A DNA stretch of 20,000 bases, taken from the IMG/VR virus record IMGVR_UViG_3300008266_011401. The stretch is one strand, 5' to 3'. Origin of the DNA: an uncultured virus (IMG/VR IMGVR_UViG_3300008266_011401) (lineage: Duplodnaviria; Heunggongvirae; Uroviricota; Caudoviricetes). Under the pieces are notes generated by a model. That model made no database searches and was not told where the DNA came from. It saw only the letters and a program-made list of their open reading frames with translations. Position numbers and translations under genes: made by a program. This document shows positions 1-20,000 of this stretch, piece by piece. Position 1 is the stretch's first letter, and every line of letters begins with the position of its first letter.

Positions 1-184
1 CAACATCATCCTCTTCTGGATTATCAATGATATTGAAGTTATACTTAAATCCCGAACAACCACCAGGTAATACCGAAATACGGAAATATTCACTATTTTC
101 CGCTTCGGAAAACTTTTTCATTTCACCCAATGCCGCGTTGGTGAAGGTAATACTAAAATCAGCCGCCTGTTGAACCGAATCCAT
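1..184 (-). CDS. iscA: IscA/HesB-family (A-type) iron-sulfur cluster carrier protein, N-terminal part; runs off the left edge
   Basis: Not in the ORF track. Manual translation from the ATG at 184 (preceded by GGGGAG) gives MDSVQQAADFSITFTNAALGEMKKFSEAENSEYFRISVLPGGCSGFKYNFNIIDNPEEDDV..., with the family hallmarks 'ITFTxAA' and 'RISVxxGGCSGFxY'. Overlaps the dUTPase 3' end by 26 bp. Confidence 0.9.
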   Translation of the reverse strand, partial: MDSVQQAADFSITFTNAALGEMKKFSEAENSEYFRISVLPGGCSGFKYNFNIIDNPEEDDV

Positions 185-578
185 TGCTCCCCCTTCCATC
201 TTCCGATGTGAGTTCAGTAACCTCTTCTACTGCAAAATCCACTGTTGGTATTAAGATTAGTTGTGCAATCTTGTCACCAATGTAAACTGTCTTAATATCT
301 GGTCCACCGTTGTGTAATGCTACCTGAATTTCACCTGTATATCCGTTATCAATTATACCCGCTACTACAAATAATTTTTTCTTCGTAGCGATGGAAGAAC
401 GATCACGAATAATACCACCATACCCAGCGGGAAATCCTATAGCGATACCGGTCTTTACCAATAATGTTTCATCTGGATATATTGAGACTTGTGCATTGGC
501 GTATAAATCATACCCCAAATCTCCAGCGTGTGCTTTTGATGGGAGTATAGCCGTGTCATATAATCTTTGTACTTTCAA
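159..578 (-). CDS. dut: Trimeric dUTPase
   Basis: Motifs 'GDLGYDL', 'RSS', 'GIIDNGYTGEI', 'GDKIAQL' and 'RGSNGFGSTG'. TTG start with an AGGAG Shine-Dalgarno (plus-strand ctcct at 586-590). Confidence 0.96.
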   Translation of the reverse strand: MKVQRLYDTAILPSKAHAGDLGYDLYANAQVSIYPDETLLVKTGIAIGFPAGYGGIIRDRSSIATKKKLFVVAGIIDNGYTGEIQVALHNGGPDIKTVYIGDKIAQLILIPTVDFAVEEVTELTSEDGRGSNGFGSTGG

Positions 579-607
579 GTTAGTGCTCCTGATATAATTA
601 GTTTTAA

Positions 608-886
608 TTATTTGTCAAATTTACCATTTATAACATCATTAATTAATTCGGTATATCCAGCTTTTGAATTTGCACCTGTTAACGATACAACATCAATATC
701 ATTTTTAAAGATAATAATTGTTGGAACTGATCGAACTTTATACTGCGTTGCCAAATCAGGACTTGCATCAACATCAACTGTTTCAAATGTAACTGCTGGC
801 ATTTCTTCCTGCAATTGCTTAAAAATAGGAGCAATCATTTTACACGGCGCACACCACGGTGCGGTAAATCTCATTACTTTAATCAT
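608..886 (-). CDS. trxA: Thioredoxin
   Basis: 'FTAPWCAPCKMIAP' active site and 'VRSVPT' cis-Pro motif; 92 aa; GAGG SD upstream. Confidence 0.95.
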   Translation of the reverse strand: MIKVMRFTAPWCAPCKMIAPIFKQLQEEMPAVTFETVDVDASPDLATQYKVRSVPTIIIFKNDIDVVSLTGANSKAGYTELINDVINGKFDK

Positions 887-895
887 ATTAACCTC

Positions 896-3800
896 TTAAA
901 AATTAATTCGGATACCTGCTTGCATTTGCCAACGTGATAACAAATCATCGTACTGATATGTTTTTACGGTTGGGTCGAAACTATACGTAGGTGTTCCACC
1001 CACTGCGCGTCCAGAACGGTATTGTAACGGATATACGTTTTGGTTATTGAGATTAGGAACGAAATACGACCTGCCCCACGAATCATTCAGTAAATTACCA
1101 ATATTCGCTATATCAAATGTATACTGCATTCTACCATGCGTTTCTGTTACACGAACATCTACTCTATGGTTCCACGGTGTTCTTCCACCATTACGTTCCG
1201 TGTACTGTCCTCGACGACTGTTTAAATATACATCATTTGATATAAACTTGTCAAGGTCTGCCCAGATTTGTGCTTCCGTTCGTGTATCGGTTTGTCCAGT
1301 AGGTCGTGCTGAAGGGACCAATTTAATTTCCGAGGCGTTTCGTGGTACATATAATAAGTCATTATGACTGGACCCATCTCCATTCAAATCACCCGAATAC
1401 ACATATGAGAACGGTGAACCAGATGCTCCTGTATACACTGCGGAAATTACGGTATTCTTTTTTACATTCCACGAGGCGTTAGACACGATTCTATGACGAA
1501 CATCATAGTTGGACCATGTTAATTCATATTCATTAGCTTTCACTAATTGATTATATTCTACGTGCGATTGAAATGAGTTACGTTGACCATTGGCCAAATC
1601 CTTTGCTTGACCATAGCTATACGCTGTCATCATATCCCACCGATTCCACTTTTTACTAAGATTTGCTGTTAAATTATACCGATATCCTAGATTGGTATTT
1701 TGTAATGCAAACACCGATGTGTAGGGATTTGTTGCCGTTGTGGACAATCGCGTTGAGGTGTATACAGGACGAGTATCAGCTCCTCCCAAATTACCCGCAG
1801 CTCCAGGTAATCCCACATTGGTGAATAAAATATCATTCAATGTTTTTGTATAGGTTCCATCTAACACCAACAATGCATCACCAGGAAGTTTAATATCCAA
1901 TGCCAAATTTCCACGTACCATTTGTGGTTGTACATATTTGTCCGTGATGATGTTCATTTCATAGTTGGTTGTACTACTCACGGAACGTTGACGTAGTGGG
2001 TCAACAATTAAAGGAACTGTGGTTGTTGGTCGGGCATCCACATTTCCTACCACCAAACCATTATGAATGAAGGGGTAAGCAAACCATGCGAATGGCATAC
2101 GTCCTTGGAACAATCCTGCACCACCACGAACAGTAACTTTATTTGTTTCCCAAATGAATCCCGCACGAGGCGCAATCATTAATGACGTACCATAATTGTT
2201 AGTAAACTTGGTATATGGTTGTGTCCCGTCCGTTAATGTTAGATTGGTAAACTCTGTCGCCTGTGTTGGTGTATCAATGATGTTCCAATCCGCACGAATG
2301 CCCAGACTTACTTTCAATCTGTCGGTTAGTGTAATTTCATCTTGCAGATACACGCTTGGTACTGCGATATTGAAATTCGCTCCAGGATTATTCAATACAT
2401 AATCTAAACTGTTATCCGTTAAATCAAAAGTGGAACGAATACGATTAGGTCTGTTAGCAAAGAATGATGCAATGTTTGAATATTGCCAACGTCCCGCATA
2501 TCCATTCACGAATGTGTACTGGACATTATAGAATTCATTGTGTGTACCCAAAGTAACTGTATGATTGTTCTTGGACCAGATTAAATTATCTGTGAGTTCA
2601 AACGTGCTAGTTCGGGTACGATACACCACGCCTTCACGATCTGCGCCAGCATTAATTTGTCCAAATTGAATATCTTGGATTTCAATCTGTGGTGCGTATT
2701 CTGAACCGTAAGGGTCACGATGGTCATTTACCAACGAATATCCTGCTAGTAAACTATTGGACACACCCACACCTAATTGTGATTTCAACTCTGCTACTGT
2801 GCTCAATGTTCTACTGATGTGATTGAAATCTTGTGAGGCAAGTTTATTTAATGCTTGACCACGTTCTAAATTACCTGCCGATGCATTAACAAAATTACTT
2901 CGAACTGTGAGAATGGAATTACCAACGTTCCAATCTAACCGCCCGAAGTATTTTTCACTATTTGCCTGAATGTTGTATGCTCCAATCGTACCAGGATCAA
3001 AGTTTGATATACCTGATTTTGCTGCAAATGAAATTAAACTATCTTGAATTTGTTGTGCAATTTCTTTACTTAACAATGCACCTTGACTTCCTGGTGCGAA
3101 TAGCACAGGGTCCGTTCTACGAGAAATTTCCGTATTGAAGAAATAGAACAATTTATCTTTGATTACAGGACCACCAATACGACCGCCGAATTGATATTCA
3201 TTGAATGATGATGGAATATCACCCGACAATCCATTTCCCACCAATTGCGGTGCTCTTCCAAAACTATAAATTGATCCTTCTTGTTTGTTTGTTCCCGAAC
3301 GAGTCACCGCATTAACACTACCGCCTGTGAAGTTACCAATCTTTACATCATATGGAGCAATAGCAACAGACACTTGTTCGATAGCATCTAATGAAATAGG
3401 TTGGGTACGTGATAGTGAACCTGGGGTTCCAGTAGGTACAGATGCAGTAGATTGACCAGATGACTGACTAAATCCGAATGCATCATTAGATGCTGCACCA
3501 TCAATAGTTAAGTTGTTATACCGATAATTGGAACCTGCAAATGACACACCATTACCTTGTGGTGTCATTCTGGTCATATCCTGCAAACTACGACCCAACG
3601 TTGGTAATACTTCCAACTTATCTCTATTTAACTGTGCAGTCACCCCATCTTTTCTTGCCTGCGCCGCTACATCGGAAACAACTTGTACACCCTCTAACTG
3701 TACAACAATCTTATCTAAAATAATTTCTTTATTAGTTGTTCTACCCAACTCAACGGAAATATCGCCCAAAGACTTTGGACGATATCCCAATGAAGTTATA

Positions 3801-4036
3801 GAAATAACATAAGGACTTCCTGGTTTCAGGTTAGTAATACTAAACTTACCGTATTCATTTGTACGTGTCATCACCTTTTGTGATGTTGGAACAAATGTGA
3901 CTGTAACCGTTGCATTACTAATAACATTACCAGTATTATCTTTTGTTATACCGCTTAAAGTTCCACTCGTAACCTGTGCGAAGGATGCGTTGGCGCACAA
4001 TACTGTCAGCGCAAGAATGCTCTTCAAAAATCTCAT
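896..4036 (-). CDS. TonB-dependent outer-membrane transporter, Oar-like, with N-terminal carboxypeptidase-regulatory-like domain
   Basis: Sec signal peptide (MRFLKSILALTVLCANASFA|Q); N-terminal 'GTLSG...ATVT...TNEYGKFSITNLKPGSPY' domain; plug motifs 'NNLTIDGA.SNDAFG' and 'PISLDAIEQVSV...YDVKIGNFTGGSVNAVTRSGTN'; many amphipathic beta-strands; 'DLNGDG' loop; C-terminal beta-signal ending in Phe (WQMQAGIRINF). GGAG SD. Confidence 0.92.
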   Translation of the reverse strand: MRFLKSILALTVLCANASFAQVTSGTLSGITKDNTGNVISNATVTVTFVPTSQKVMTRTNEYGKFSITNLKPGSPYVISITSLGYRPKSLGDISVELGRTTNKEIILDKIVVQLEGVQVVSDVAAQARKDGVTAQLNRDKLEVLPTLGRSLQDMTRMTPQGNGVSFAGSNYRYNNLTIDGAASNDAFGFSQSSGQSTASVPTGTPGSLSRTQPISLDAIEQVSVAIAPYDVKIGNFTGGSVNAVTRSGTNKQEGSIYSFGRAPQLVGNGLSGDIPSSFNEYQFGGRIGGPVIKDKLFYFFNTEISRRTDPVLFAPGSQGALLSKEIAQQIQDSLISFAAKSGISNFDPGTIGAYNIQANSEKYFGRLDWNVGNSILTVRSNFVNASAGNLERGQALNKLASQDFNHISRTLSTVAELKSQLGVGVSNSLLAGYSLVNDHRDPYGSEYAPQIEIQDIQFGQINAGADREGVVYRTRTSTFELTDNLIWSKNNHTVTLGTHNEFYNVQYTFVNGYAGRWQYSNIASFFANRPNRIRSTFDLTDNSLDYVLNNPGANFNIAVPSVYLQDEITLTDRLKVSLGIRADWNIIDTPTQATEFTNLTLTDGTQPYTKFTNNYGTSLMIAPRAGFIWETNKVTVRGGAGLFQGRMPFAWFAYPFIHNGLVVGNVDARPTTTVPLIVDPLRQRSVSSTTNYEMNIITDKYVQPQMVRGNLALDIKLPGDALLVLDGTYTKTLNDILFTNVGLPGAAGNLGGADTRPVYTSTRLSTTATNPYTSVFALQNTNLGYRYNLTANLSKKWNRWDMMTAYSYGQAKDLANGQRNSFQSHVEYNQLVKANEYELTWSNYDVRHRIVSNASWNVKKNTVISAVYTGASGSPFSYVYSGDLNGDGSSHNDLLYVPRNASEIKLVPSARPTGQTDTRTEAQIWADLDKFISNDVYLNSRRGQYTERNGGRTPWNHRVDVRVTETHGRMQYTFDIANIGNLLNDSWGRSYFVPNLNNQNVYPLQYRSGRAVGGTPTYSFDPTVKTYQYDDLLSRWQMQAGIRINF

Positions 4037-4076
4037 AAATCTCCGATGTATGGGTAATATAACCCGTTATTGTTTA

Positions 4077-5927
4077 TCAAACAACTTCACAGGCACCACC
4101 ACCACATGCTACCTCGCCAGACAGATTAGTACCATCTACGAATTCTACTACATCGTCTAGGTTGATATCGTGTAAATGCCCAATAAGTTCATTATAGGTT
4201 TCTTCGTTTACATCTTCGAATGGTGCTTGAATATATGAGTGGTCGGAATACGGGAGTACTGACAATGCTGTGAAGTTCTCGCGGTTTTCCCACATCCACT
4301 CACCCACTTCTTGCCATTCACCATCCTTAATAGACACGGTAACGGATACATTATTCTTATTTGCACCCTTACGATGACCTGGCTTCACCCATTCCTTCCA
4401 TACCTTAGATACACGCTTCAACAAATCCAATGCGGATTCCTGACGAGTGACCGCGCCTTCGGGTGCCTTTTGTGGCACTTCAATGACAGCTTGAAGATTT
4501 GGTTTAAAATACTCGTCTGTAATTAATTCTGGGTGATTAATTTTTAGATAGCTATAGATACTTTCATTCTTTCCAACACGGATACGACGAATGTAGTGCT
4601 TGTTATGCCAAGCGTGGATACCACTACTCGTACCCAAAACGAGGGACGATGTGCCTTCCGGCTTCACGGTTGTGCAACGGGCCGCTGGCATCGTACCAAT
4701 TATGGACGATACACGTGCATTCTCTTCCTTTACCATATTTGCAGCTTCCTTCATGTCGAGTTTCAACACTCCACCCGATGCGATTCCAGTCATACTCACG
4801 CCGATTAACGCTTCCTTCTCCGTGGTTCTCTTCCATATATCTCTCAAATAGTGAAAATCTGTGTACGATGCTTGTAATGTGCCAATAAATGCTGCTGCCT
4901 TTGCACGCGCATTCAAATCATCTTGATCAACAACATCACCAGCATGAATAGTGGTAAGATTACAGAATTGGAAAGGACGAAGTGAAATTTCTGCACACGG
5001 GTTCATGCCCCAATCCTTGTCATTTGTAAAGAAGAATCCAGGTTCACCAGAACCAGAGAGTTCAATCTTCTTCCACAATTCAAAGAATGTTTCTTCTTCA
5101 ACCTTTGAACGAACGATTACTGCACTATTATTTGCACGACCACGTTGTGGATTATTTTCCCACCAGTTGCCGAACTTACAAGTCAACATATCATCATCGT
5201 CAATGTCGAACAACGAAATCATAGCGGAACGACGAATTCCACCAGCAAGTACAGCGTCAGCAATATAGCATAGAATATCGTGGACTTCAATTGTGGTGAG
5301 CTTTTCACCATTTTGCTTACGGTCAAGAACTTTTTGAACATTATGTAAACAATCCTTTAATGGTTCTGGTCCTGGTGCCTTGCCACCGGAAGTGATAAGT
5401 TGTGCACCCTTTGGACGAATATCGGAAAAATCATATACTGGTAATGCCTTGCCCTTCATATACGCAGTAATCATTACCTTCACTGCATCTGCCCAACCTT
5501 CAATACTATCACCGACGAGATAACGACGGGACTTGGTGGGCTTATTAATTTCTGGGAGTTGCTCAATGTGATGACGTTGGACAGAATATCCTACACCTGT
5601 TCCAGACAACAAAAGGAACATTACTTCACTGAATGCGTCTACATTATCAATTGGTAAAAAGCAGCAATTGTATAAACGTGCATTGTTAATAGCAATTGGC
5701 TTACCAGCGAATTGTAAACTACGCATGGATGGAAGAATCTTTTTATCGTAAACAAATTTATAGGCGCTTTCTATTTCATCCTTTAAGTTTGGATACTTCT
5801 CCAAATGCATTTCTTTATTTCTATCAACTAATTCTTTCCAGTTTTCTCTACGTTGTAGTTCTGGATTATATTTTGCATACTTCATAAACACTGTAATATC
5901 ACTTAAAATCTTTGCTTCAATCTGCAT
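4077..5927 (-). CDS. nrdJ: Class II (adenosylcobalamin-dependent) ribonucleotide reductase, monomeric RTPR-like
   Basis: 'LPSMRSLQFAG', 'YNCC', 'GTGVGYSVQ', 'GGIRRSA', catalytic 'NPCAEI', 'TTVKPEGT' and C-terminal redox pair 'ACGGGACEV'. 616 aa, no ATP cone, no adjacent beta subunit. Confidence 0.92.
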   Translation of the reverse strand: MQIEAKILSDITVFMKYAKYNPELQRRENWKELVDRNKEMHLEKYPNLKDEIESAYKFVYDKKILPSMRSLQFAGKPIAINNARLYNCCFLPIDNVDAFSEVMFLLLSGTGVGYSVQRHHIEQLPEINKPTKSRRYLVGDSIEGWADAVKVMITAYMKGKALPVYDFSDIRPKGAQLITSGGKAPGPEPLKDCLHNVQKVLDRKQNGEKLTTIEVHDILCYIADAVLAGGIRRSAMISLFDIDDDDMLTCKFGNWWENNPQRGRANNSAVIVRSKVEEETFFELWKKIELSGSGEPGFFFTNDKDWGMNPCAEISLRPFQFCNLTTIHAGDVVDQDDLNARAKAAAFIGTLQASYTDFHYLRDIWKRTTEKEALIGVSMTGIASGGVLKLDMKEAANMVKEENARVSSIIGTMPAARCTTVKPEGTSSLVLGTSSGIHAWHNKHYIRRIRVGKNESIYSYLKINHPELITDEYFKPNLQAVIEVPQKAPEGAVTRQESALDLLKRVSKVWKEWVKPGHRKGANKNNVSVTVSIKDGEWQEVGEWMWENRENFTALSVLPYSDHSYIQAPFEDVNEETYNELIGHLHDINLDDVVEFVDGTNLSGEVACGGGACEVV

Positions 5928-6009
5928 TTGCTTACTCCAAACTTACTCTATGTTAAATGGTTATGGTAAAATAAATAGGTTGCTTCTGTCTGAAAAAATT
6001 ATATGTTAC

Positions 6010-7416
6010 TTAATCATCCAAACTTTCTAGTCCACTCATTTCTGCTAGCTTTTTTCTCAAATTACTTCGTTCATCATTTGCTTGATTATCCATTTGTTTT
6101 TTCAAAAGGATACCCTTTGTGGACTTCTCATCATAAATATTGATTTGACCGATACTTGTATCCATTACGACAGGGAAAGTTTGTCCGTCTGCGCCAAATC
6201 TATTTTTAATGATATGGGCACGTCCTGTCTTATTGACTTTATCCTCTAACTTTCTGCTCAGAGAAATAACCAAGTCTGCCGTCATAATCTTATTATAACT
6301 TTCGGAAATCTTATCTGCTTGAATTACATCGTCTTGAATAGAACTTCTCTGCGTCTGCGAAGCAGTCCAACACGGAATATTCAATTCTCCAGCGATACCA
6401 CGAAGTTCTTCGTAAATTGCACCAAGTTCTTGATACCGTGCATCTACTCGTTCTGCTGACCTCAATAGGTCTGCGTAGTCAACCAACATAATATCTGGTT
6501 TATATCCCAATGCAGTTAACTGTTGCACGTGTGCCATTAGTGTATTACACGTTGCACTTCGAGCAGGATAATACTTAATAATTAATTGTCCGTTAATCTG
6601 TGACACCACATCTTTGACTGTATCAACGTTATCTGGAATCTTACCAGGTTCAATACCAGTGAAAATAGTATCATAACGAATACCGACATAATTTTCATTT
6701 AGTTCAAGTGTGTAATGAACAACACGTTTTCCTTTCTTCAATGCGTTTGCACCGATGGTAGACAATGCCCAACTCTTACCAATACCCGATGGAGCAGCGA
6801 TAACACCAAGTTCACCACCACCCAATCCACCACCAGTAATTGCATCAATTACGTCCCAACCAGTTGCCACAGTATCACGAGAAATGCGAGCCAAACGACC
6901 CTCAATATCTTCTGACCAGTTTAGACCGATTTCCTTTGGTTGACCACTACGAAGGGCATTATCAACTACGGTTTTAATTGCATTATAGTCGCCACTTTGC
7001 AATAAATCTACCGATTTAATAATTGCTGATTTAAGTGATTGGTTACGAGCGAAATCAAGAAACTTATCACGAACATATTGTGCATCGCTGTCTGTAACCT
7101 TGGTGACAACCTTTCTGAGCAGTTCGATAGTTCCCGCACGAAGAGAATCATCACTCTCGTGCGATAGTTCGATCTTAAAATATTCTAATGTTGGTAAAGT
7201 GCGGTATTCGTTGTAATATGTTAATGTTTTCTTCGCAAGCCATTTACCGGAATCACTGTCAAAGAAGTATGGATTGATGACATCAAACGATTGCTCTAAA
7301 AAGTCAGGAGCTGAAATAATAGATGCTAATACTTTTGTTTGGAATTCAATTCCATACTTTGAAAGATTGTCTACATTACTATCATAGTTTTGTGGTGCTG
7401 CTACTATTGGAACCAT
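6010..7416 (-). CDS. Replicative SF4 DNA helicase (DnaB / T4 gp41-like)
   Basis: Walker A 'APSGIGKS', 'HYTLEL', Walker B 'VDYADLL', 'WTASQTQR', 'IIKNRFG'. GAGG SD inside the upstream gene (35-bp overlap). Confidence 0.93.
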   Translation of the reverse strand: MVPIVAAPQNYDSNVDNLSKYGIEFQTKVLASIISAPDFLEQSFDVINPYFFDSDSGKWLAKKTLTYYNEYRTLPTLEYFKIELSHESDDSLRAGTIELLRKVVTKVTDSDAQYVRDKFLDFARNQSLKSAIIKSVDLLQSGDYNAIKTVVDNALRSGQPKEIGLNWSEDIEGRLARISRDTVATGWDVIDAITGGGLGGGELGVIAAPSGIGKSWALSTIGANALKKGKRVVHYTLELNENYVGIRYDTIFTGIEPGKIPDNVDTVKDVVSQINGQLIIKYYPARSATCNTLMAHVQQLTALGYKPDIMLVDYADLLRSAERVDARYQELGAIYEELRGIAGELNIPCWTASQTQRSSIQDDVIQADKISESYNKIMTADLVISLSRKLEDKVNKTGRAHIIKNRFGADGQTFPVVMDTSIGQINIYDEKSTKGILLKKQMDNQANDERSNLRKKLAEMSGLESLDD

Positions 7417-8458
7417 TAGAGAACCTCGTTAGTGGAACAAATGTGGATGTTAACCACATATCGTAATTCGGGAAGTTAGATATAACTTTACTGCGTATGA
7501 GCAACTTTGTCAAGTCCATCTTGCGTAAATCTGTCTTAGTTGTATCCAACTTATGAATAATTTTCATCTTTGCATCAGTAGAAATATTCACATCACGTAA
7601 TTGCATTAATTGCATATTACGTTCTATAACATCTTTATTATCTAAAATATTTTCAATTAATTTTGGTTTCTTTTTTACATCAGTATATTTTTGTTCTATA
7701 AAATTGTAGTCTACCATGTCGGAATTATCTAACAATTCTGGTAATAGTTTAAGAACTGTTTTTTCTCCCGCCCCACGGATACCATCAATATTATCACTCT
7801 TGTCACCAAGTAACGCTCGATAATGTACGAAATTATCGGGATGAACGCCGTATGCTTCTATTACGGTATTTACATCAAACGTCTTTTTCTTAACAGGATT
7901 ATATACTCTGGTAGTTTCTGTAACCATCTGCAAGAAATCTTTATCTGTTGAGTAGATAATAGATTGTCCACCTTGTGCGGTAACCATTTCCGATGCATAT
8001 GCAATCACATCATCCGCTTCGATGTTGTCCATAGTAAATACCGTTACTGGTAAACACTCCAACATTTCTACCAACGTTACCAGTTGATATTTCATATTTT
8101 CCGTTTCTTGCTGTTCGGTTGTCATATCATATTGACGATTCAACCGAGTTGGTGGTTTACGATTTGCCTTGTAGTCAGGATAAATTTTTCTTCGTCGTTG
8201 ACTACCACCCTTACCATCAAACACAATAACAACACGAGTGGGTTTAAAATCACGTATAACCGAACCAATACTTTTTAGAAATCCAGACATTCCACCAATA
8301 TGATTTCCATTGTCATCCAATGTTGGAATTGCTGCATAACTTCTAAGGAAGGTGTTCAAAGCGTCAATCAGGAGGACACGACTGTTGTAGGTCATTCCCT
8401 CCTGATTGTTATTTTCGAAATTCATTGATGCAAAAACCTTTTGTAGATCACTCATCAT
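7382..8458 (-). CDS. 5'-3' exonuclease / flap endonuclease (PolI N-terminal domain or T4 RNase H-like), stand-alone
   Basis: 'LLIDALN', 'VFDGKGGS..RRKIYPDYKANR', 'EADDVIA', 'STDKDFLQ' and the H3TH motif 'LLGDKSDNIDGIRGAGEKT'. Confidence 0.93.
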   Translation of the reverse strand: MMSDLQKVFASMNFENNNQEGMTYNSRVLLIDALNTFLRSYAAIPTLDDNGNHIGGMSGFLKSIGSVIRDFKPTRVVIVFDGKGGSQRRRKIYPDYKANRKPPTRLNRQYDMTTEQQETENMKYQLVTLVEMLECLPVTVFTMDNIEADDVIAYASEMVTAQGGQSIIYSTDKDFLQMVTETTRVYNPVKKKTFDVNTVIEAYGVHPDNFVHYRALLGDKSDNIDGIRGAGEKTVLKLLPELLDNSDMVDYNFIEQKYTDVKKKPKLIENILDNKDVIERNMQLMQLRDVNISTDAKMKIIHKLDTTKTDLRKMDLTKLLIRSKVISNFPNYDMWLTSTFVPLTRFSNGSNSSSTTKL

Positions 8459-8753
8459 TACTCTCTGCCGTCGAGTTCATAAACCCCAATTTTTGTGCAA
8501 GTGCAATAATTTCATTATCATCCATTGCGTTAATATCCAATCCTTCAAGTTCTTGAAGAATGGGGTCATTTGCAGTAACCGATAAGTTTGCTTCAAACGG
8601 AACTGGTACCACAGGTTGCGAAATTGCAACCTGTGGCGTCATTACATTATTGTATGACATTAGTTTCCGTCGAAGTTGTAATTCAAACTTATCTACATCA
8701 CCCGATGCGTTGGTAAATGCTTCAAGTGCAATAGATATGAATTCTTCTAACAT
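8448..8753 (-). CDS. Hypothetical small acidic protein
   Basis: 101-aa ORF filling the gap between recA and the exonuclease and overlapping the latter; no recognisable motif. Confidence 0.7.
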   Translation of the reverse strand: MLEEFISIALEAFTNASGDVDKFELQLRRKLMSYNNVMTPQVAISQPVVPVPFEANLSVTANDPILQELEGLDINAMDDNEIIALAQKLGFMNSTAESNDE

Positions 8754-8756
8754 ATA

Positions 8757-9920
8757 TTAATCCAGTAAGAGTTCTTTCTTATCTTCTTCACCAGTATCTA
8801 ACGACATCGCATCTGGATCGTATTCCGTCTTGTATTTCATAATCAGTGCGTCACAAATCTTCTGGTAGATAGATTCCTTTCTATCCATATCTTCATCCAA
8901 AATCTTTGGGAAATCCTTAGACTGGAATTTCAATTCTTCACCAGTAGTGTCATCAACCAGAGTATACCATGCACCCGATTGCTTGACCAAACCATTGTCC
9001 TTCAAGACATCCAACCAGCTACCATAGTCATCAATACCACGGTCGAAGTAGATATCAAATTCCGCGACACGATGCGGTGGACCAAGACGATTCTTTACCA
9101 CTACCGCCTTTACCTTAACACCAACCACATTTTTACTTGAATCGTTGATTTTACCAATCAATGACAAACGAATACGAGTAGATGCGTGGAATGCGATAGC
9201 CTTACCACCCGAAGTAGTCCACGGGTCACTGAACGCAGGAGCGTTCATCTTCTGACGAAGTTGATTGGTAAAGACTAGTGCGATTCGCTCTCGTCCAAGA
9301 AGTCCTGTAATCTTACGCATCGCTTTGGAGATAATGATTGCTTTATCTGTTGCATATCCGTCTTTTCCAAAATCGGCTTCCATTTCTTTCTTGGTAGACG
9401 CAGCGGCAACGGAGTCAACGATAATCGTGACAAGCTTATCCTTTTCCTTACCAGTTCTAACTTTTTCAATAATGTTTGTAATCGCATCGAAGATATCTTC
9501 TACGGTAGAAAGATGAACATATACTAGTTTATTCATATTGATACCCACCGCCTTGAAGAAGTCAGGATTGACTGCGGTTTCGGTATCAATAAGTACTGCC
9601 ACACCACCACGTTTCTGCGTGTTAGCGATAAGCTGTGCACCAACCAATGACTTACCAGAACCTTCAAGACCAGTAAGTTCAGTAATACGACCGACTGCGA
9701 TACCTCCATACGGACGATTGCTCACCGCAATGTCCAACATAGTTGCACCAGTAGAAATAAAATCGGTAAAGTCGGTTGGTGTTTCTTCTTGCCCATCAAG
9801 GAAATAAGCAACCTGATCGGAATCCTTATTTAACTTGTTGAGTGAGTCTGCGATGACTTGTGCCAATTCGTCACGATTTGCTGACGGCATTGGTTTCTTA
9901 GTTTTCTTTTCGGTACTCAT
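8757..9920 (-). CDS. uvsX: RecA/UvsX-like recombinase
   Basis: 'ISTGATMLD', 'GRITELTGLEGSGKS' (Walker A), 'IDTE', 'IIVDSVAA', 'FTNQLR', 'TSGGKAIAFHASTRI', 'VVKNRLGPP', 'KQSGAWY'. Confidence 0.93.
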   Translation of the reverse strand: MSTEKKTKKPMPSANRDELAQVIADSLNKLNKDSDQVAYFLDGQEETPTDFTDFISTGATMLDIAVSNRPYGGIAVGRITELTGLEGSGKSLVGAQLIANTQKRGGVAVLIDTETAVNPDFFKAVGINMNKLVYVHLSTVEDIFDAITNIIEKVRTGKEKDKLVTIIVDSVAAASTKKEMEADFGKDGYATDKAIIISKAMRKITGLLGRERIALVFTNQLRQKMNAPAFSDPWTTSGGKAIAFHASTRIRLSLIGKINDSSKNVVGVKVKAVVVKNRLGPPHRVAEFDIYFDRGIDDYGSWLDVLKDNGLVKQSGAWYTLVDDTTGEELKFQSKDFPKILDEDMDRKESIYQKICDALIMKYKTEYDPDAMSLDTGEEDKKELLLD

Positions 9921-9932
9921 AATGATTACCGA

Positions 9933-10751
9933 TTAATTGTCGAATAGCTTATCAAATTCATCAAGCGCGTTCTTGACCTGTGCCGATTCAGAAATCTCTG
10001 TCTTAACGTCGAGAATTTCCGCCGTCACACTCTTAACCTCAGGACTACCCTTTGCAGGTGCGGGGGTTGGTGTTGTGCTATCAGGATCGAGATACTTTTC
10101 CAGAACCACACGAAGTTCCTCGTACGAAGGTTCCTTGTACAGGGAGAAAATATCGGGCTGCTCAGAAAGAAGCTTCTTTGCAAGGTCCACATCAGCAACA
10201 ACAGGAGTCTGATTCGGCTTCACCTTAACTGAGGTCTTAGCAAAATTCGTGTCCGACTTTTCCTGCGGAATGTACTCTACTACAATGTCACGACCAGCCT
10301 TCGGGTCGGTGATATCACCGTAGTCAGGGTCAGCGATGTACGAAAGAAGGTCCTGATAGACTGTCTTACCGAATGAGAAGAAACGAACACCCTTGCTCTC
10401 TTCACCACGAACGATGATAGGAACATACGTACGGAGCTTCGGACGGAAAGCACGTGACTGCGAATACGCAGCCTTCTCGGCGTCACGACCCTCACGGCGT
10501 GCATCTTCAACTAGCTTGTCTGCGAATTCCGCGATAGGGTCACGGCGCCCAAACGAAAGAGGTGAGATGTAGGTCTTATTACCAAGATAATGGAAATAGA
10601 GCTCAATAAAGGGATTCTCACGATTCTGCACCCACGGGACGATACGGATAGTCGTCTTACCTTCGGTGGGCTTCCAAATGGATTCACTGCGGTCAGTCTG
10701 CTTAGTGAATGTGTTCAGCTTTGCCTTTAGGGCATTAAAATCCAGTGCCAT
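9933..10751 (-). CDS. Single-stranded DNA-binding protein, T4 gp32-like
   Basis: 'WKPTEGKTTIRIVP', 'NPFIELYFHY', 'GVRFFSFGKTVYQDLL', 'DYGDITDP..GRDI' and an acidic tail (DEFDKLFDN). Start reassigned to the ATG at 10751 (MALDFNALK), which has an AGGAG SD at 10759-10763. Confidence 0.85.
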   Translation of the reverse strand: MALDFNALKAKLNTFTKQTDRSESIWKPTEGKTTIRIVPWVQNRENPFIELYFHYLGNKTYISPLSFGRRDPIAEFADKLVEDARREGRDAEKAAYSQSRAFRPKLRTYVPIIVRGEESKGVRFFSFGKTVYQDLLSYIADPDYGDITDPKAGRDIVVEYIPQEKSDTNFAKTSVKVKPNQTPVVADVDLAKKLLSEQPDIFSLYKEPSYEELRVVLEKYLDPDSTTPTPAPAKGSPEVKSVTAEILDVKTEISESAQVKNALDEFDKLFDN

Positions 10752-10793
10752 ACTTTTACTCCTTTTAGTGTTTAGTGTTGAGAGTTTAAAACT

Positions 10794-10817
10794 CCTCGTC
10801 ATAGTATTATAACGAGG
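10794..10817. repeat. 24-bp imperfect palindrome over the -10 box and start site (candidate operator)
   Basis: Plus strand cctcgtcata-gtat-tataacgagg; the 10-bp arms are complementary at 9 of 10 positions. Confidence 0.6.
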
Positions 10818-10834
10818 TACTGCTTATTTGTCAA
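10806..10834 (-). promoter_or_regulatory. Perfect-consensus sigma70 promoter driving the SSB-recA operon
   Basis: Minus strand reads TTGACA (10834-10829), a 17-bp spacer (aataagcagtacctcgt), then TATAAT (10811-10806), with AT-rich sequence upstream. Confidence 0.9.
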
Positions 10835-10844
10835 GTAGTGATTT

Positions 10845-11246
10845 TTATAAATTAATTATATTAGAAATTTTAGTATTTACTTTTTTCAAACGACCATATG
10901 CAGTCACCAATACAGTGTTCTGCAATTCAGACCAATCAATCTTATATGATTTATCTAATACACCACCATTCTTTTCTTCAATTAACTTGTTAATTGCATT
11001 AATTGTGTAAATGGTATTTGTTTGTTTCTTTCTATGAACTGAAATTGTAGATTCCGGTGCTGCACCACGAACAGGTTTCGACATATCAATGTTGTAGGTT
11101 AATATGACTTGATTTTCATCATTCACATTGTCCAACACATATACTGAATTAAATGCAAGAGTATAAACTTTCTTAATCTGTTCGATTGTTACTTCTATGT
11201 CTTTCTTTGCACAAAAAGTACAGAGTAATTGCGTTTCTGCTTTCAT
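10845..11246 (-). CDS. Hypothetical phage protein
   Basis: 133-aa ORF between the polymerase and SSB genes; motif-like stretches 'QLLCTF' and 'ISVHRKKQTNTIYTINAIN'; function not recognised. Confidence 0.8.
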   Translation of the reverse strand: MKAETQLLCTFCAKKDIEVTIEQIKKVYTLAFNSVYVLDNVNDENQVILTYNIDMSKPVRGAAPESTISVHRKKQTNTIYTINAINKLIEEKNGGVLDKSYKIDWSELQNTVLVTAYGRLKKVNTKISNIINL

Positions 11247-11317
11247 AATATAAACTCATTAGGGTAAAGCTTTCCAGCGTTAATCTCCTAATAAATATTA
11301 TTATGTACGGTGAAACC

Positions 11318-12628
11318 TTATATTTTTATCATCTCCAACTCATCATAATTTCTACCTTTATACATTCTTGTTGGATATCCACCTTCTTCCAACAAACTCT
11401 TGATACGGGGAAGCATAGCGGTTTCTGACCTATGTAAATCCAATAGTAATGCATCGTATGTATATAGAATTGGTTTGGTCAATTTACCTTCCAATAATTG
11501 ACACACCATAGATACTTTGGACAATGCTTCTTCTGTTTCCAACCATTGTACGGAATAATTAAATACTTTGTTGGGTGAGGGTTCATCTACTATTATACGT
11601 TTTCCACTGTTTGTTTTAATAAACCCCATAACCTTATAAAAATCCCATAACTGTTCAGAATATTTTCGTACATTATGGAAAAACTCTACCCCACCAAAAT
11701 CCTCGTTCATACCATACATTAGTGCGAATGTACGCGCCTTTGACTGCTCGTACTCGTCTGGCGTCACTTCCTGCTTGCCGTAGTATTGTTGGGCGAGATA
11801 GGTGTGTACAGAACTCGTGGGCAGGTTATAATTGATTTGTGCCCCAACCAATCGAAGATGAAACGCCTCATAGTCAAATTGGATAAGTAAACCATCATCA
11901 CCATATCTACTGGTAAATGCTCGTCGAGTACCATCGTTTTTATTGATTGCCGCGAAGTTAATTCCACCATACTTGTTACTTGGACGACCTGTTGATGTAT
12001 AGGGATTGTACTCAGAATATATAGTATTATTGTTTATATACTTTTTCACATCACCATAATGTTCCATCAACACAGCAGAATCAACATAAATACCAGATTT
12101 CTCAATAGTAGTTAATGTTGGTATAACTTTATTATTAACAAAATCATACCCATCTGGAATTTTATTATAAAAAGATTCTTTTAGAAACTGAGTTAGTTTG
12201 TATCCATATTCGACCCACATCATAAGTGGAACACTCAGATGTAAATTCTTAAACTGGAATTGTTGCAACATTCTGGTGATAATCGGGGTATAGTATTCTC
12301 GTATTTCGGGAATGACTTTACTGGATAGATGTAGTATTGTTGCAACATCATGCACACGTTCCTGCGGGATGTTGAACGTGTGAAGAATTTCTCTTTTATA
12401 AAGTGTGATTACTTTAAATGCACGTTCCAATGAAATGGACATTGGTATTGCGTCGGGATGATTAAATGGAACGCAGTAGTAATCTTTATCAATAAGAATG
12501 TGAAGTGACGAGATGGTATTTATTGCGGGATGTGAGTGTTGATCGACAAAAATAGGCACCACGACTGATGCCTCAGTTTCAATTCTGTTTTGTAGTTTTT
12601 GTAACTCCGTAACCGATTGAACGACCAT
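11318..12628 (-). CDS. Compact, divergent family A DNA polymerase-like protein
   Basis: 'STGRPS' (cf. TGRLS), motif A 'QFDYEAFHLRL', motif B 'SKARTFALMYG', 'FNYSVQ', motif C 'YTYDALLLD'. 436 aa. The start abuts the upstream stop (TAAATG). Confidence 0.8.
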   Translation of the reverse strand: MVVQSVTELQKLQNRIETEASVVVPIFVDQHSHPAINTISSLHILIDKDYYCVPFNHPDAIPMSISLERAFKVITLYKREILHTFNIPQERVHDVATILHLSSKVIPEIREYYTPIITRMLQQFQFKNLHLSVPLMMWVEYGYKLTQFLKESFYNKIPDGYDFVNNKVIPTLTTIEKSGIYVDSAVLMEHYGDVKKYINNNTIYSEYNPYTSTGRPSNKYGGINFAAINKNDGTRRAFTSRYGDDGLLIQFDYEAFHLRLVGAQINYNLPTSSVHTYLAQQYYGKQEVTPDEYEQSKARTFALMYGMNEDFGGVEFFHNVRKYSEQLWDFYKVMGFIKTNSGKRIIVDEPSPNKVFNYSVQWLETEEALSKVSMVCQLLEGKLTKPILYTYDALLLDLHRSETAMLPRIKSLLEEGGYPTRMYKGRNYDELEMIKI

Positions 12629-13042
12629 TTACTCCCCCGACCAAAACTCCATATAGTTTCGTAAGTGATTCGTGATACCAGGTAACTTTTCCTCTGCAAG
12701 CGATAAAAGTTCTTTGTTTTGGCTAATCACTCCCTTGATTAATATATTGTCCCCACTTGGCAAAGTCAAGATGGTATCTTCCAATTTACCACGTATTATC
12801 CAATCAATGGTAGTTTTTCTAAATAAGTTATTATCTTCAATAGCTGCGTACTGCCCACCATCCAATTCATATATCAAACCATTACGTTGCGCAGTATACT
12901 TGGCAAAATATCGTGGTTTGACACGTTTATCAATATCTTCTTGTGTAAGTGTAGGAATAACATTTTGTATACTGGCAAGCAAGGTTTTCTTTACATCCGT
13001 GTTTCCTAGTATGTCAAATAATCCAGTAGGTATACTATCCAT
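12629..13042 (-). CDS. Hypothetical phage protein at the end of the tail block
   Basis: 137-aa ORF collinear with and tightly packed between its neighbours. Confidence 0.75.
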   Translation of the reverse strand: MDSIPTGLFDILGNTDVKKTLLASIQNVIPTLTQEDIDKRVKPRYFAKYTAQRNGLIYELDGGQYAAIEDNNLFRKTTIDWIIRGKLEDTILTLPSGDNILIKGVISQNKELLSLAEEKLPGITNHLRNYMEFWSGE

Positions 13043-13055
13043 AAATTATTTACGG

Positions 13056-14351
13056 TTAAGTTTGATTTCTAAAATACGGTGCCATAATATTAAATGGTAT
13101 GATATTCAATCTAGCATAAATATTAGTTGTCCATCCTCTATCCATTGTAATAGTTTCTGTAAGGCCGAATACTTGGAAAGCGCCTATCTTTTTGTATTGC
13201 TCAGAAATTCTATCTACCCAAAATATCTGACCGATACTAAATCCTGCTACACCAGGTATGGTTAATTCTACCGTTGTTGCTAGTTTACCAGGTGCTCTCC
13301 ATGCATGAGGATTTGCGGGAGTTATAGTATTAATACCCAGCTTACCACTCGGCATTTCCGTTTCCGATGCCATTTCTTCTCGCATTCTATCTGGAAAGAA
13401 TTCAAATAAATTTTGTGCCACGAGGAAATATTGTTCCGATGGAATGAAATTACCAATGTTGGTTATAATATTTTGCGTCTGTTGTCTATATTCCGTAAGT
13501 GCCTGATCTGTGTTATCCAGTAATGCCAGTTCACCAGCCAGTTGTTGTTCATTAATAATGACTTGATTTAACGCAATACGATTTTTTAAGTCTTGTAAAA
13601 ATGTAATGGTACTAGGTGTAGTTGCACCACCTGCATTTGTATATGCTGACCGTGGAGCGGATGGAACTGTTAATAGTTTTAATATTTCATCATCATTTAT
13701 TGGTGTGACGTATGTTGTTCGTTCATAATCACTAACACTTAAAAAAGTTCCCGATGTAACAGTGTATGATGGTATACTTAATCCAACAGTCGTATAATAA
13801 TTTTGAAGTAACGGTAATGCAGCGTCATTGTTATCTTTCAACCTGCCATCGTTCCATTTCGAACGTTCTGTATTTACTGTATCTACGATAGTTGTAACTT
13901 TATCTTGTGGTGGACGTAAAATAACAAATGGTATTGCTCGTTTATCTTGTAATGACGTTGAGGTAATTCCACCATTTACCAATGTTAAATTATTATTGAA
14001 TCCAACCGTGTCCGATAAATTTCCACCAATAATTCTTGCACTCGTAGGACTTACAGATACAACGATATCACCGTGCGAAACACCAGTCCAAGAAGTTGTC
14101 TGTGTATATGTTTGGGTGTTCCATACGTTATTTTCACTTCTGTTTGCTACTACTATATCGCCAACTTGTAGTTTGGAGTTGAGAGGATTTAATACTTGAA
14201 ATCCTCTACTATTTCGTCGTAAGTCTTGTGCGTACGCCGTATGAGAAGTTCTCGCAGGAAAATCAACACCGGCAGTTTTCATAACATAACTTATGAACGC
14301 TGCACTCCACGCTGTATTATTGATAAATGTTTGTTGTGATGTTGTTGGCAT
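13056..14351 (-). CDS. Putative virion-associated cell-wall hydrolase: DUF2272/CHAP-like domain plus baseplate-hub-like C-terminus
   Basis: 'AWSAAFISYVM', 'SHTAY', 'LQVGDIVV', 'SHGDIVV' and 'IIGGNLSDTV' match my recollection of DUF2272. The C-terminal 'VELTIPGVAGFSIGQIFWVD...FQVFGLTETIT...GWTTNI' resembles hub (gp27/VgrG-like) C-terminal barrels. Confidence 0.65.
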   Translation of the reverse strand: MPTTSQQTFINNTAWSAAFISYVMKTAGVDFPARTSHTAYAQDLRRNSRGFQVLNPLNSKLQVGDIVVANRSENNVWNTQTYTQTTSWTGVSHGDIVVSVSPTSARIIGGNLSDTVGFNNNLTLVNGGITSTSLQDKRAIPFVILRPPQDKVTTIVDTVNTERSKWNDGRLKDNNDAALPLLQNYYTTVGLSIPSYTVTSGTFLSVSDYERTTYVTPINDDEILKLLTVPSAPRSAYTNAGGATTPSTITFLQDLKNRIALNQVIINEQQLAGELALLDNTDQALTEYRQQTQNIITNIGNFIPSEQYFLVAQNLFEFFPDRMREEMASETEMPSGKLGINTITPANPHAWRAPGKLATTVELTIPGVAGFSIGQIFWVDRISEQYKKIGAFQVFGLTETITMDRGWTTNIYARLNIIPFNIMAPYFRNQT

Positions 14352-16837: not shown

Positions 16838-16840
16838 AAA

Positions 16841-17113
16841 TTATAGTAACCCTGCTGATGGAATAATAAGTTCAATACCGCCAGGAATGAAAACAGTTCC
16901 ATTGACATATCCGTTGGCTTTGGCAATAATCCACCACTTAGATGCGTCTTTATAATATCGTGTTGCCAACGAATCAAAACGATCACCATCTTGCGTTACA
17001 ACTTTAAATTGAAACGCATCGGGAGTAATTGGGGACGGTAGTATAGTGGTATAATACTGTACCCCCTTATCAGTTTTTTCAATTTCTAAGTTAGTAGTAT
17101 ATCGTGATAACAT
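16841..17113 (-). CDS. LysM-like / tail protein X-like baseplate wedge protein
   Basis: 'VVTQDGDRFDSLATRYYKDASKWWIIAKANG...GIELIIP' is a LysM-type fold signature typical of contractile-tail baseplates. Confidence 0.8.
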   Translation of the reverse strand: MLSRYTTNLEIEKTDKGVQYYTTILPSPITPDAFQFKVVTQDGDRFDSLATRYYKDASKWWIIAKANGYVNGTVFIPGGIELIIPSAGLL

Positions 17114-17119
17114 ATTATA

Positions 17120-19273: not shown

Positions 19274-19276
19274 AGA

Positions 19277-20000
19277 TTATCCCACCACAGATAGACGGTC
19301 CATTGGTGACCGTGCGTTTAATGAAACCCGTCCTACTGTGTTACCATCCATTTCAATCTTAATCCCGGCGAACGCCGATGCCAATCTATCTAATTTAGCT
19401 TCTAATTTAGACATATCTACATTGACAGTATTTGTTACTGCCGGTGCTTGTTGTTGTGCTGTCATTGGTGACGTAAGTGTACCAGCGGATAATAACTTTG
19501 TACCGGCCATTACAGTATCTTTGTTATTTAATGAGATAGTTTCATTTGGTGTTACCAGTACACGACTACCATACCCAGGAGAAGAAATGACATCATCTCC
19601 TTCTTCTGACTTCATACCCATCGCAGCGTATCCACCACCCGCTAACGCACCTGCCCCCAATAGTGCTAAGGATGCTCCACCACTGGGTATTGCTCCTAGT
19701 ATAGCAGCAGCTGTGAGTAATGTACCTATTCCTCCACCTATTGCACCAAGTCCAATACCTGTTTTTGTATTACCTTGTTCAACAAGTTCTCTACCAGCCA
19801 TAGCACTACCAACCCCAACAGTAAGACCTGCTGCACCAAGACCGACTCTACCAGCTGTGCCTCCTAATAATTTTCCAAACATTCCAGAACTTCCCATCAT
19901 AGCAGTATTTGCTACTAACGCAGCAGTATTTGCTATTAATGCCAAAGTTTGTGGATTTACAACAGATACCAATCCACCAATTCCAGTTAAGAGTGGTCCT
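19277..20000 (-). CDS. Tape measure protein, C-terminal part; starts beyond the right edge
   Basis: The frame stays open to the window edge (GPLLTGIGGLVSVVNP...). Gly/Ala-rich hydrophobic segments, 'GDDVISSPGYGSRVLV', 'IEMDGNTVGR'; sits upstream of the baseplate genes. Confidence 0.7.
   Translation of the reverse strand, partial: GPLLTGIGGLVSVVNPQTLALIANTAALVANTAMMGSSGMFGKLLGGTAGRVGLGAAGLTVGVGSAMAGRELVEQGNTKTGIGLGAIGGGIGTLLTAAAILGAIPSGGASLALLGAGALAGGGYAAMGMKSEEGDDVISSPGYGSRVLVTPNETISLNNKDTVMAGTKLLSAGTLTSPMTAQQQAPAVTNTVNVDMSKLEAKLDRLASAFAGIKIEMDGNTVGRVSLNARSPMDRLSVVG

Follow-up and report, generated by a model that had tools for sequence, protein, structure and literature searches.

An open reading frame (ORF) of 1046 amino acids (aa) in a 20,000-nucleotide stretch of an uncultured virus (IMG/VR record IMGVR_UViG_3300008266_011401), which we call the window, encodes an intact TonB-dependent transporter (TBDT) of the Oar type. 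The gene lies between a class II ribonucleotide reductase (RNR) gene and a thioredoxin gene, and it is a genuine domesticated phage gene under strong purifying selection. We give about even odds (roughly 0.5) to the reading that this bacterial gene was captured long ago in the ancestry of a freshwater phage lineage, has been carried since then as a moron-like cassette, and produces a working TonB-coupled transporter. As judged by sequence relationships, the source was most likely Gemmatimonadaceae-like bacteria. The window corresponds to bases 63,821-83,820 of a 104,871-base virus record, for which CheckV estimates 55% completeness.

Assembly continuity, composition, and selection all indicate that the gene belongs to the phage. 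Five other viral contigs are collinear with positions 1-6000 of the window at 99.78-100% identity, without gaps and across both junctions of the TBDT gene. The names of these contigs carry other dataset numbers; they possibly stem from one campaign and are separate assemblies, and therefore the arrangement is not a chimera. The guanine-plus-cytosine (GC) content of the gene is 0.400, compared with 0.394 for the record, its codon usage is that of the phage, and its third-position GC is 0.30, versus 0.64 and 0.81 in Gemmatimonadaceae homologues. The ratio of nonsynonymous to synonymous substitution rates (dN/dS, by Nei-Gojobori) was 0.054, 0.044, and 0.114 for the three unsaturated TBDT pairs (dS 0.28-0.49) and 0.065-0.093 for comparisons with the window copy. 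The corresponding values were 0.088-0.094 for the RNR, 0.078-0.097 for PolB, and 0.082-0.127 for RecA, such that purifying selection on the TBDT equals that on replication genes. Clade A, as we refer to the window's lineage, comprises 17 viral or metagenome records with the gene, 16 of which have no stop codon in the part seen. We found no integrase or transposase gene anywhere in the record, window included, and around the TBDT gene we saw no repeats beyond short imperfect matches of a kind expected by chance. An earlier, sequence-only reading of this DNA had called the gene domesticated, phage-like and AT-rich in composition, and free of adjoining transposase, integrase, or obvious repeats, and each of these points is borne out. 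The two checks it had suggested here, on continuity at the junctions and on dN/dS, gave five further collinear assemblies and, with values of 0.04-0.11, no relaxed selection.

Related phages carry the gene in other places. Orthologues at 73-77% identity to the window TBDT occur in 11 further viral or metagenome records, whose core proteins share 64-89% identity with those of the window, with one TBDT copy per searchable record. The order is PolB-TBDT-ligase in six records (two of them cut within the gene, leaving only the PolB side visible), and in the records with this context the RNR is directly followed by another thioredoxin, just 27-28% identical to the one in the window. In two records the TBDT sits beside a Mom-like gene region, in one of them before a dCMP deaminase gene, and in two it lies ahead of a gene for a permuted transfer-messenger RNA (tmRNA). 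A 5' leader of ~50 nucleotides (nt) accompanies the gene in five sister records representing three contexts, and its hairpin has 2-3 pairs altered on both sides, in compensated fashion. A terminator-like hairpin 3' of the stop codon accompanies the gene in five records and two contexts. The window copy retains only a short hairpin in its 40-base spacer, partly alignable with the sister leader, most of which is lost. The pattern suggests a moron-like cassette of one gene, the TBDT, that changes slots among related genomes, and an nrdJ/trxA neighbourhood that is a local accident of the window species with no functional link. The sequence-only reading had coupled the gene to nrdJ, thioredoxin, and nucleotide synthesis, and had proposed conserved linkage to nrdJ as a check; with three other contexts in related records, this coupling is not supported.

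The leader lies at L009:9950-10003 and in the matching stretch of L010, L011, L012, L118, and L120; the terminator-like hairpin, which has a T-rich tail, lies at L009:13139-13230 and in the matching stretch of L011, L012, L118, and L120. A TATAAT-like and a TTGACA-like stretch precede this second hairpin and may serve the next gene. Rfam returned no family for the sister leader (301 bases around the leader, E<=1) or for the terminator-like hairpin.

To place the gene among its cellular counterparts, we considered 1,194 database relatives, which fall into identity steps of 100%, 75-76%, 63-68%, 57-62%, 50-53%, and 39-44%. Those at 63-68% (P0008-P0010; ~1045 aa) are absent from the viral collection searched and could be either phage or cellular; those at 57-62% are 1073-1120 aa long and include a contig of 58.8% GC from a Gemmatimonadaceae metagenome-assembled genome, where the neighbours are ordinary cellular genes (an AcrB/HlyD pump, a two-component system, and PEP mutase). 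A metagenome scan recovered few of the 50-68% relatives, and metagenome relatives of 42-52% identity sit on contigs of 58-65% GC. With the phage protein as query, close copies turned up in 1/151 sampled genomes of the phylum (next best 35%), 2/201 of the family, and 3/61 and 2/20 of two sampled genera; the nearest cellular clade (58-62%) thus appears to be a patchily distributed accessory gene of high-GC Gemmatimonadaceae. Both a 90-row FastTree and a 31-row IQ-TREE nested clade A inside this high-GC/Gemmatimonadaceae group, and from the nesting we infer that the gene was taken from such bacteria and then fully ameliorated. Around the cellular homologues themselves, L194 has AcrB on the same strand, immediately upstream (L194:5049-6197), an OmpR/histidine-kinase-HlyD-AcrB operon is divergent from the homologue in L037 (L037:1-4779), and the L128 gene, a 46% relative, comes after a response regulator and a kinase.

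Five other viral records (clade B; 57-195 kb, 28-33% GC, one rated 100% complete) also encode Oar-type TBDTs, which share 37-38% identity with the window TBDT and group beside Arcicella within Bacteroidota. Forcing all phage sequences into a single clade cost 806 log-likelihood units and was rejected by the approximately unbiased (AU) test at p=5e-52, with groups that had been named after inspection of a first tree. A second phage lineage therefore gained this type of transporter in a separate event, with Bacteroidota as the source. Phylogeny against cellular Oar-like TBDTs, another check proposed earlier, hence finds the phage rows nested among cellular sequences, with two origins. In three records (L031:11054-12640, L032:9113-10636, and L033:11307-12800), the clade-B TBDT is immediately followed by a gene for a secreted protein of ~500 aa, possibly a partner at the outer membrane. 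The protein combines a long low-complexity linker, rich in Ser/Ala and Lys/Glu, with a C-terminal domain that is rich in beta structure and 59-90% identical between the three records.

At the protein level, the 1046-aa ORF begins with ATG and has no internal stops. Inspected by eye, its N-terminus resembles a Sec signal peptide, with a pair of basic residues, a hydrophobic core, and an S-F-A/Q junction; Q21 is invariant across a 25-sequence alignment, as is the terminal Phe, F1046, and residues 2-14 are helical in the structural model. An N-terminal CarboxypepD_reg extension is a mark of the Oar subclass, and it was found in 25/25 aligned relatives. The barrel was matched by Pfam OMP_b-brl_4 (PF25183; residues 358-964, 6.7e-35) and only weakly by TonB_dep_Rec_b-barrel (PF00593; 5.1e-5, 23.8 bits versus a 27-bit cut-off). 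Pfam Plug (PF07715) did not match the whole protein at E<=0.01 and, for residues 110-270 alone, gave E=0.07 with 14.1 bits, where the cut-off is 23.9. This is a trait of the whole subfamily, as the Plug model matches just 2/25 family members at E<=0.01. We discarded a weak PHROGs tail-fibre match to the N-terminal domain (6.3e-4), which reflects the common carboxypeptidase-regulatory fold and no virion role.

An AlphaFold model of the protein (mean confidence, pLDDT, 75.4; template-modelling score, pTM, 0.73) aligned to solved 22-stranded TBDTs with Z 27-32 and root-mean-square deviations of 2.9-4.8 A over 507-643 residues; we took the strand number from these matches rather than counting it from coordinates. 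The alignments begin at model residue 119-130, at the N-terminal plug of the solved TBDTs, and reach the last strand, with model residues 119-121 opposite BtuB residues 4-7 (e.g. 120 to residue 6), so that the motif at 114-122 faces the TonB box of BtuB. We assigned a putative plug because the model aligns to the plugs of these solved structures. The claim of a complete 1046-aa Oar-type TBDT stands, with an intact ORF and matches to PF13620 and PF25183. Likewise the signal peptide, extension, barrel, and C-terminal Phe that had been read from the sequence hold up, whereas the plug falls short of the Pfam threshold and is supported by the AlphaFold model, at low confidence for residues 162-212.

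A TonB-box-like pattern, in which hydrophobic residues alternate, is kept in 24/24 sequences (12 from the phage clade and the 12 nearest cellular ones). Mean column conservation within the phage clade was 0.92 for the plug, its best-conserved region, 0.82 for the barrel, and 0.68 for the N-terminal extension; the nearest cellular sequences gave 0.85, 0.81, and 0.67. Because this profile parallels that of its cellular relatives, we take the protein to act as they do, as a TonB-coupled gate. On this model, the protein would be exported during infection via Sec and inserted in the host outer membrane by BAM, using its C-terminal aromatic signal. It would then couple to the host TonB-ExbBD through the conserved motif at residues 114-122, which is predicted to act in TonB coupling, and the infected cell would gain an extra energised gate for some substrate. 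Expression, membrane insertion, coupling, and import are each predictions from the sequence. A diderm host, also anticipated by the sequence-only reading, follows from the type of protein.

Several observations weigh against this reading. We cannot name a substrate, and the literature we read gave none for any Oar-type importer. One lake metatranscriptome contained two exact contigs, of 151 nt in the TBDT and 260 nt in the RNR, which could be DNA carry-over; only one metatranscriptome run had any words in common (share 0.06), and three others had none, which is no proof of absence. Part of the plug is poorly modelled (pLDDT <50 at residues 111-133 and 162-212), in addition to being unmatched by the Plug model at the Pfam threshold. 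In one clade-A record, an in-frame TAG (L010:10526-10528) stands near codon 176 in place of a conserved Leu, which may reflect recoding, a pseudogene, or an error in sequencing. Compatibility with the host TonB is assumed; no tonB or exbBD genes were seen in the 104,871-base record. Conservation of the TonB box fits titration of TonB equally well, the many envelope-glycan genes of the phage suit a surface-remodelling role, and titration or receptor masking is inseparable from transport on sequence.

The most tangible competitor is one in which transport is beside the point: the barrel would flood the outer membrane, or its TonB box would soak up TonB, remodelling the envelope so that competing phages and bacteriocins are blocked at adsorption or entry. 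We consider this possible and on balance doubtful. It would suit the sizeable surface-glycan block of the record (a GT2, a GT11, two GT4, and other genes), TonB titration would also require the conserved TonB-box-like motif, and interference with the receptor landscape has been proposed for phage outer-membrane proteins (OMPs) in the available text of a preprint that cites lambda Lom binding LamB (10.64898/2026.10.24.761521). However, an arms-race surface protein is expected to vary in its loops, and the loops here are no more variable than in cellular relatives, the plug is the most conserved region, dN/dS is uniformly low, and the protein is without a known partner or receptor. The gate might instead work outward, as in Myxococcus Oar, letting a phage or host protein such as a surface-acting enzyme leave the periplasm. 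Secretion of PopC depends on Oar, in E. coli as well (PMC6434023), and Oar is the sole experimentally studied protein of such architecture that we met in the literature. The nearest cellular relatives adjoin resistance-nodulation-division (RND) pump genes (L194 and L037), and a secreted protein follows the TBDT in 3/5 clade-B records. Even so, the RND linkage comes from two loci, the likeness to Oar is one of architecture, and the clade-A gene has no candidate cargo beside it, its neighbours differing from context to context; we regard outward transport as improbable.

Import of cobalamin for the adjoining B12-dependent RNR had been the leading idea of the sequence-only reading. In the window species the gene starts 40 bases after a class II RNR, all clade-A records that show both genes have a class II RNR (82-83% identity), and NrdB was not found in the 104,871-base record. 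Yet the adjacency is absent from the six PolB/ligase-context records and four others, and Rfam found no cobalamin riboswitch in the window (gathering scores) or in the sister leader (301 bases, E<=1). Such a riboswitch is usual, though not universal, in the leaders of BtuB and other cobalamin TBDTs. NCBIfam gave neither BtuB nor any other named family (E<=1), the 25-sequence profile matched no solved chain, BtuB included (E<=0.001), and BtuB (Z 29.4-29.6) ties in fold with PirA, FecA, FusA, and Cir (Z 30.4-31.8). The predicted structure, which had been put forward as a check, thus supports the TBDT fold and not any closeness to BtuB over other TBDTs. Clade-B phages, moreover, encode a class I RNR (NrdA and NrdB) in 3/4 records, and the class II RNR query was matched in 0/4; the fourth record, a 37% fragment, gave no RNR match. 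The B12 idea fails because the adjacency is unconserved, the riboswitch is absent, BtuB-specific similarity is lacking, and clade B has class I RNR; we hold it to be very improbable, and an attractive story is thereby removed as unsupported. Least credible of all is that the gene is an assembly chimera or a decaying passenger with no role. The TAG codon in L010 and the movement of the gene among genomes would fit decay, but six records, including the window's own, have the same junctions, 16/17 clade-A records lack a stop in the part seen, dN/dS is 0.04-0.11, and the composition is fully ameliorated. More speculatively, large aquatic phages could have gained Oar-type TBDTs repeatedly and convergently as a tool. 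The one here, in a lineage related to Microcystis phage Mel-JY01, would be a self-contained unit of structured leader, gene, and terminator that moves from slot to slot; its capture from Gemmatimonadaceae-like bacteria would point either to large phages of Gemmatimonadota, the first such group, or to a transfer across phyla, and it may be a TonB-powered gate for export or for exclusion of rivals rather than a nutrient importer. We offer this as a tentative idea that we would not favour.

The preferred reading, a captured and working TonB-coupled transporter, has parallels in described systems. Like Oar of Myxococcus xanthus (MXAN_1450; PMC6434023), the window protein has a signal peptide, a CarboxypepD_reg extension, a TonB-box-like motif, a putative plug, and a large barrel in ~1050 aa, without a SusD-type partner. 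That source also reports that Oar requires its TonB box and functions with the E. coli Ton system. Unlike Oar, the window protein is phage-encoded, its Plug and PF00593 matches are below threshold with the barrel recognised by PF25183, and its record shows neither a PopC-like cargo nor a dedicated set of ton genes. BtuB of E. coli and BtuB1-3 of Bacteroides share the plug-and-barrel fold (Z 27-31.6), but BtuB is ~600 aa long, lacks the N-terminal extension, and has no sequence-level match to the window TBDT, which is no closer in fold to BtuB than to iron, ferredoxin, and colicin receptors. SusC/RagA proteins of Bacteroidota likewise combine an N-terminal carboxypeptidase-regulatory-like domain with a large barrel, and SusC chains were among the fold matches (8aa4_A); they differ in that the window TBDT has no SusD-like neighbour in any context and no NCBIfam SusC/RagA match. 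As with phage morons such as lambda Lom, we see a host-derived outer-membrane gene forming a self-contained unit with its own hairpins in varying slots, although Lom is an 8-stranded barrel and not a 22-stranded energised transporter. Mobile promoter-stem-loop cassettes occur in T4-type phages and resemble this one in their own hairpins and varying slots; here, no promoter is defined.

Phage TBDTs are already in print (2021, and two 2026 preprints). One source (PMC9723777) describes a SusC-like gene in Mar_Mega_1, a marine megaphage, and in LR745206, and another (bioRxiv 10.64898/2026.05.02.722434) reports six TBDTs from ammonia-oxidiser phages. A third, a huge-phage survey (10.64898/2026.10.24.761521), counts 1,603 beta-barrel OMPs across 1,303 phages, presents a tree of those with 22 strands, TonB-dependent receptors included, and reports transcription of a Lak-phage TonB-dependent receptor. 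The statement that a full-length TBDT is atypical phage cargo was therefore overstated, given the many OMPs catalogued in that survey's available text. Lak-phage cluster HP2985, Mar_Mega_1, and the ammonia-oxidiser phages are, in these sources, similar to our case in having a full-length, presumably host-derived TBDT in a large phage, where it is interpreted as an auxiliary or envelope gene. The published phage TBDTs are, in the text available, SusC-like, siderophore or haem receptors, or untyped, whereas the window's is Oar-type; the same text mentions no selection, positional mobility, leader hairpin, or double origin. A tblastn search with the window TBDT matched 1/50,697 GenBank phage records, a 6-kb gut fragment at 29.7%. 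To this we add evidence for selection and for movement as a cassette, membership of the Oar subclass, and two independent origins. A phage-supplied energised gate would alter uptake or release by the infected cell, with a bearing on lake nutrient flow and on phage-phage competition, and this TBDT is a well-defined single-gene candidate with which the function of a phage TBDT could be tested for the first time.

Every long ORF in the window is on the minus strand. In order of transcription the ORFs comprise tail and baseplate genes, a DUF2272 protein, and a PolA-like protein; then a gp32-type single-stranded DNA-binding protein (SSB), RecA/UvsX, a 5'-3' exonuclease, and a DnaB helicase; and finally the class II RNR, the 1046-aa ORF, thioredoxin, dUTPase, and an IscA-like protein. 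The TBDT ATG follows the RNR stop by 40 bases, 9 bases separate the TBDT from the thioredoxin ATG, and a GGAG lies 4 bases ahead of the TBDT start codon, confirming the spacing and the Shine-Dalgarno (SD) sequence described in the sequence-only reading. The remainder of the record is phage-like, with PolB, ligase, a clamp loader, ThyX, a T4-type baseplate protein, collagen-like fibres, and a tail chaperone.

Features of the TBDT gene and its neighbours in the window (window coordinates)
Feature	Coordinates	Strand	Basis
Intact TBDT gene, 1046 aa, Oar-type	896..4036 (stop codon 896-898)	-	ORF, Pfam, fold, dN/dS
Residues 1-20, predicted Sec-type signal peptide, cleavage before Q21	3977..4036	-	judged by eye
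Residues 26-106, N-terminal extension	3719..3961	-	CarboxypepD_reg PF13620 2.9e-15
Residues 114-122, TonB-box-like motif	3671..3697	-	pattern L-x-x-[VI]-x-[VI]-[VTIS]-[ASV]-[DS]
Residues 123-262, divergent plug domain	3251..3670	-	Pfam Plug E=0.07; aligned to solved plugs
Residues 263-1046, beta-barrel, long loops, C-terminal Phe	899..3250	-	PF25183 6.7e-35; Z 27-32
Class II (B12-type) RNR, 616 aa, upstream neighbour	4077..5927	-	Pfam RNR-II_ins_dom 4.9e-8; PHROG 367 3.2e-128
40-base spacer between RNR and TBDT, with small hairpin (4050-4067) and GGAG	4037..4076	-	
Thioredoxin, 92 aa, downstream neighbour	608..886	-	Pfam PF00085 2.1e-22
dUTPase, next same-strand gene	159..578	-	Pfam PF00692 1.2e-25

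Clues to the host point in several directions. The TBDT points to Gemmatimonadaceae, yet the GC gap is ~20 points, and RibB and RecA match Gemmatimonadaceae and Bacteroidota about equally (43-46% and 34-39%). SD-like motifs precede 38/122 crudely called genes, versus a background of 3.9%, a weak hint against a Bacteroidota host. No tRNA genes were found in the 105-kb record. The best cultured relative is the Microcystis phage Mel-JY01 (PolB 43%, RNR 64%, RecA 54%), with 26/122 predicted proteins matching the first 150 kb of that genome in the same order and no TBDT homologue in it. The replication module in window positions 1-20000 is collinear with Mel-JY01 (PP395634.1, 190 kb) 46,600-75,700 at 26-64% protein identity, through genes for the PolA-like protein, SSB, RecA, exonuclease, helicase, and class II RNR and on to thioredoxin, dUTPase, and PolB; the Mel-JY01 RNR is annotated 'hypothetical protein' in GenBank. 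The permuted tmRNA of two sister phages may also be a host clue: it scores as Rfam beta_tmRNA, and two Gemmatimonadaceae genomes that we checked have standard tmRNA. This two-piece RNA comes directly after the TBDT stop (L010:13129-13449 and L123:10111-10421), is above the Rfam gathering scores for tmRNA_permuted (RF04321) and beta_tmRNA (RF01850), and encodes the tag peptides GTYNTPLALAA and GTYNAPLALAA.

Elsewhere in the record, the surface-glycan block (G000:C1:19,800-41,600) contains GT2, two GT4, GT11, and two NAD-dependent epimerase/dehydratase genes, along with genes for a methyltransferase, a cupin isomerase, a cytidylyltransferase, and RibB (DHBP synthase). A gene resembling the RuBisCO large subunit lies at G000:C1:24075-25304 (L014:4845-6074, minus strand; PF00016 2.9e-33) and its >100 database relatives, 75-88% identical, sit on contigs as long as 346 kb. 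The record also encodes two Mom-like proteins (PF25680; G000:C1:45842-46669 and 53530-54120) and a DruA-like protein (PF14236; 48500-49936).

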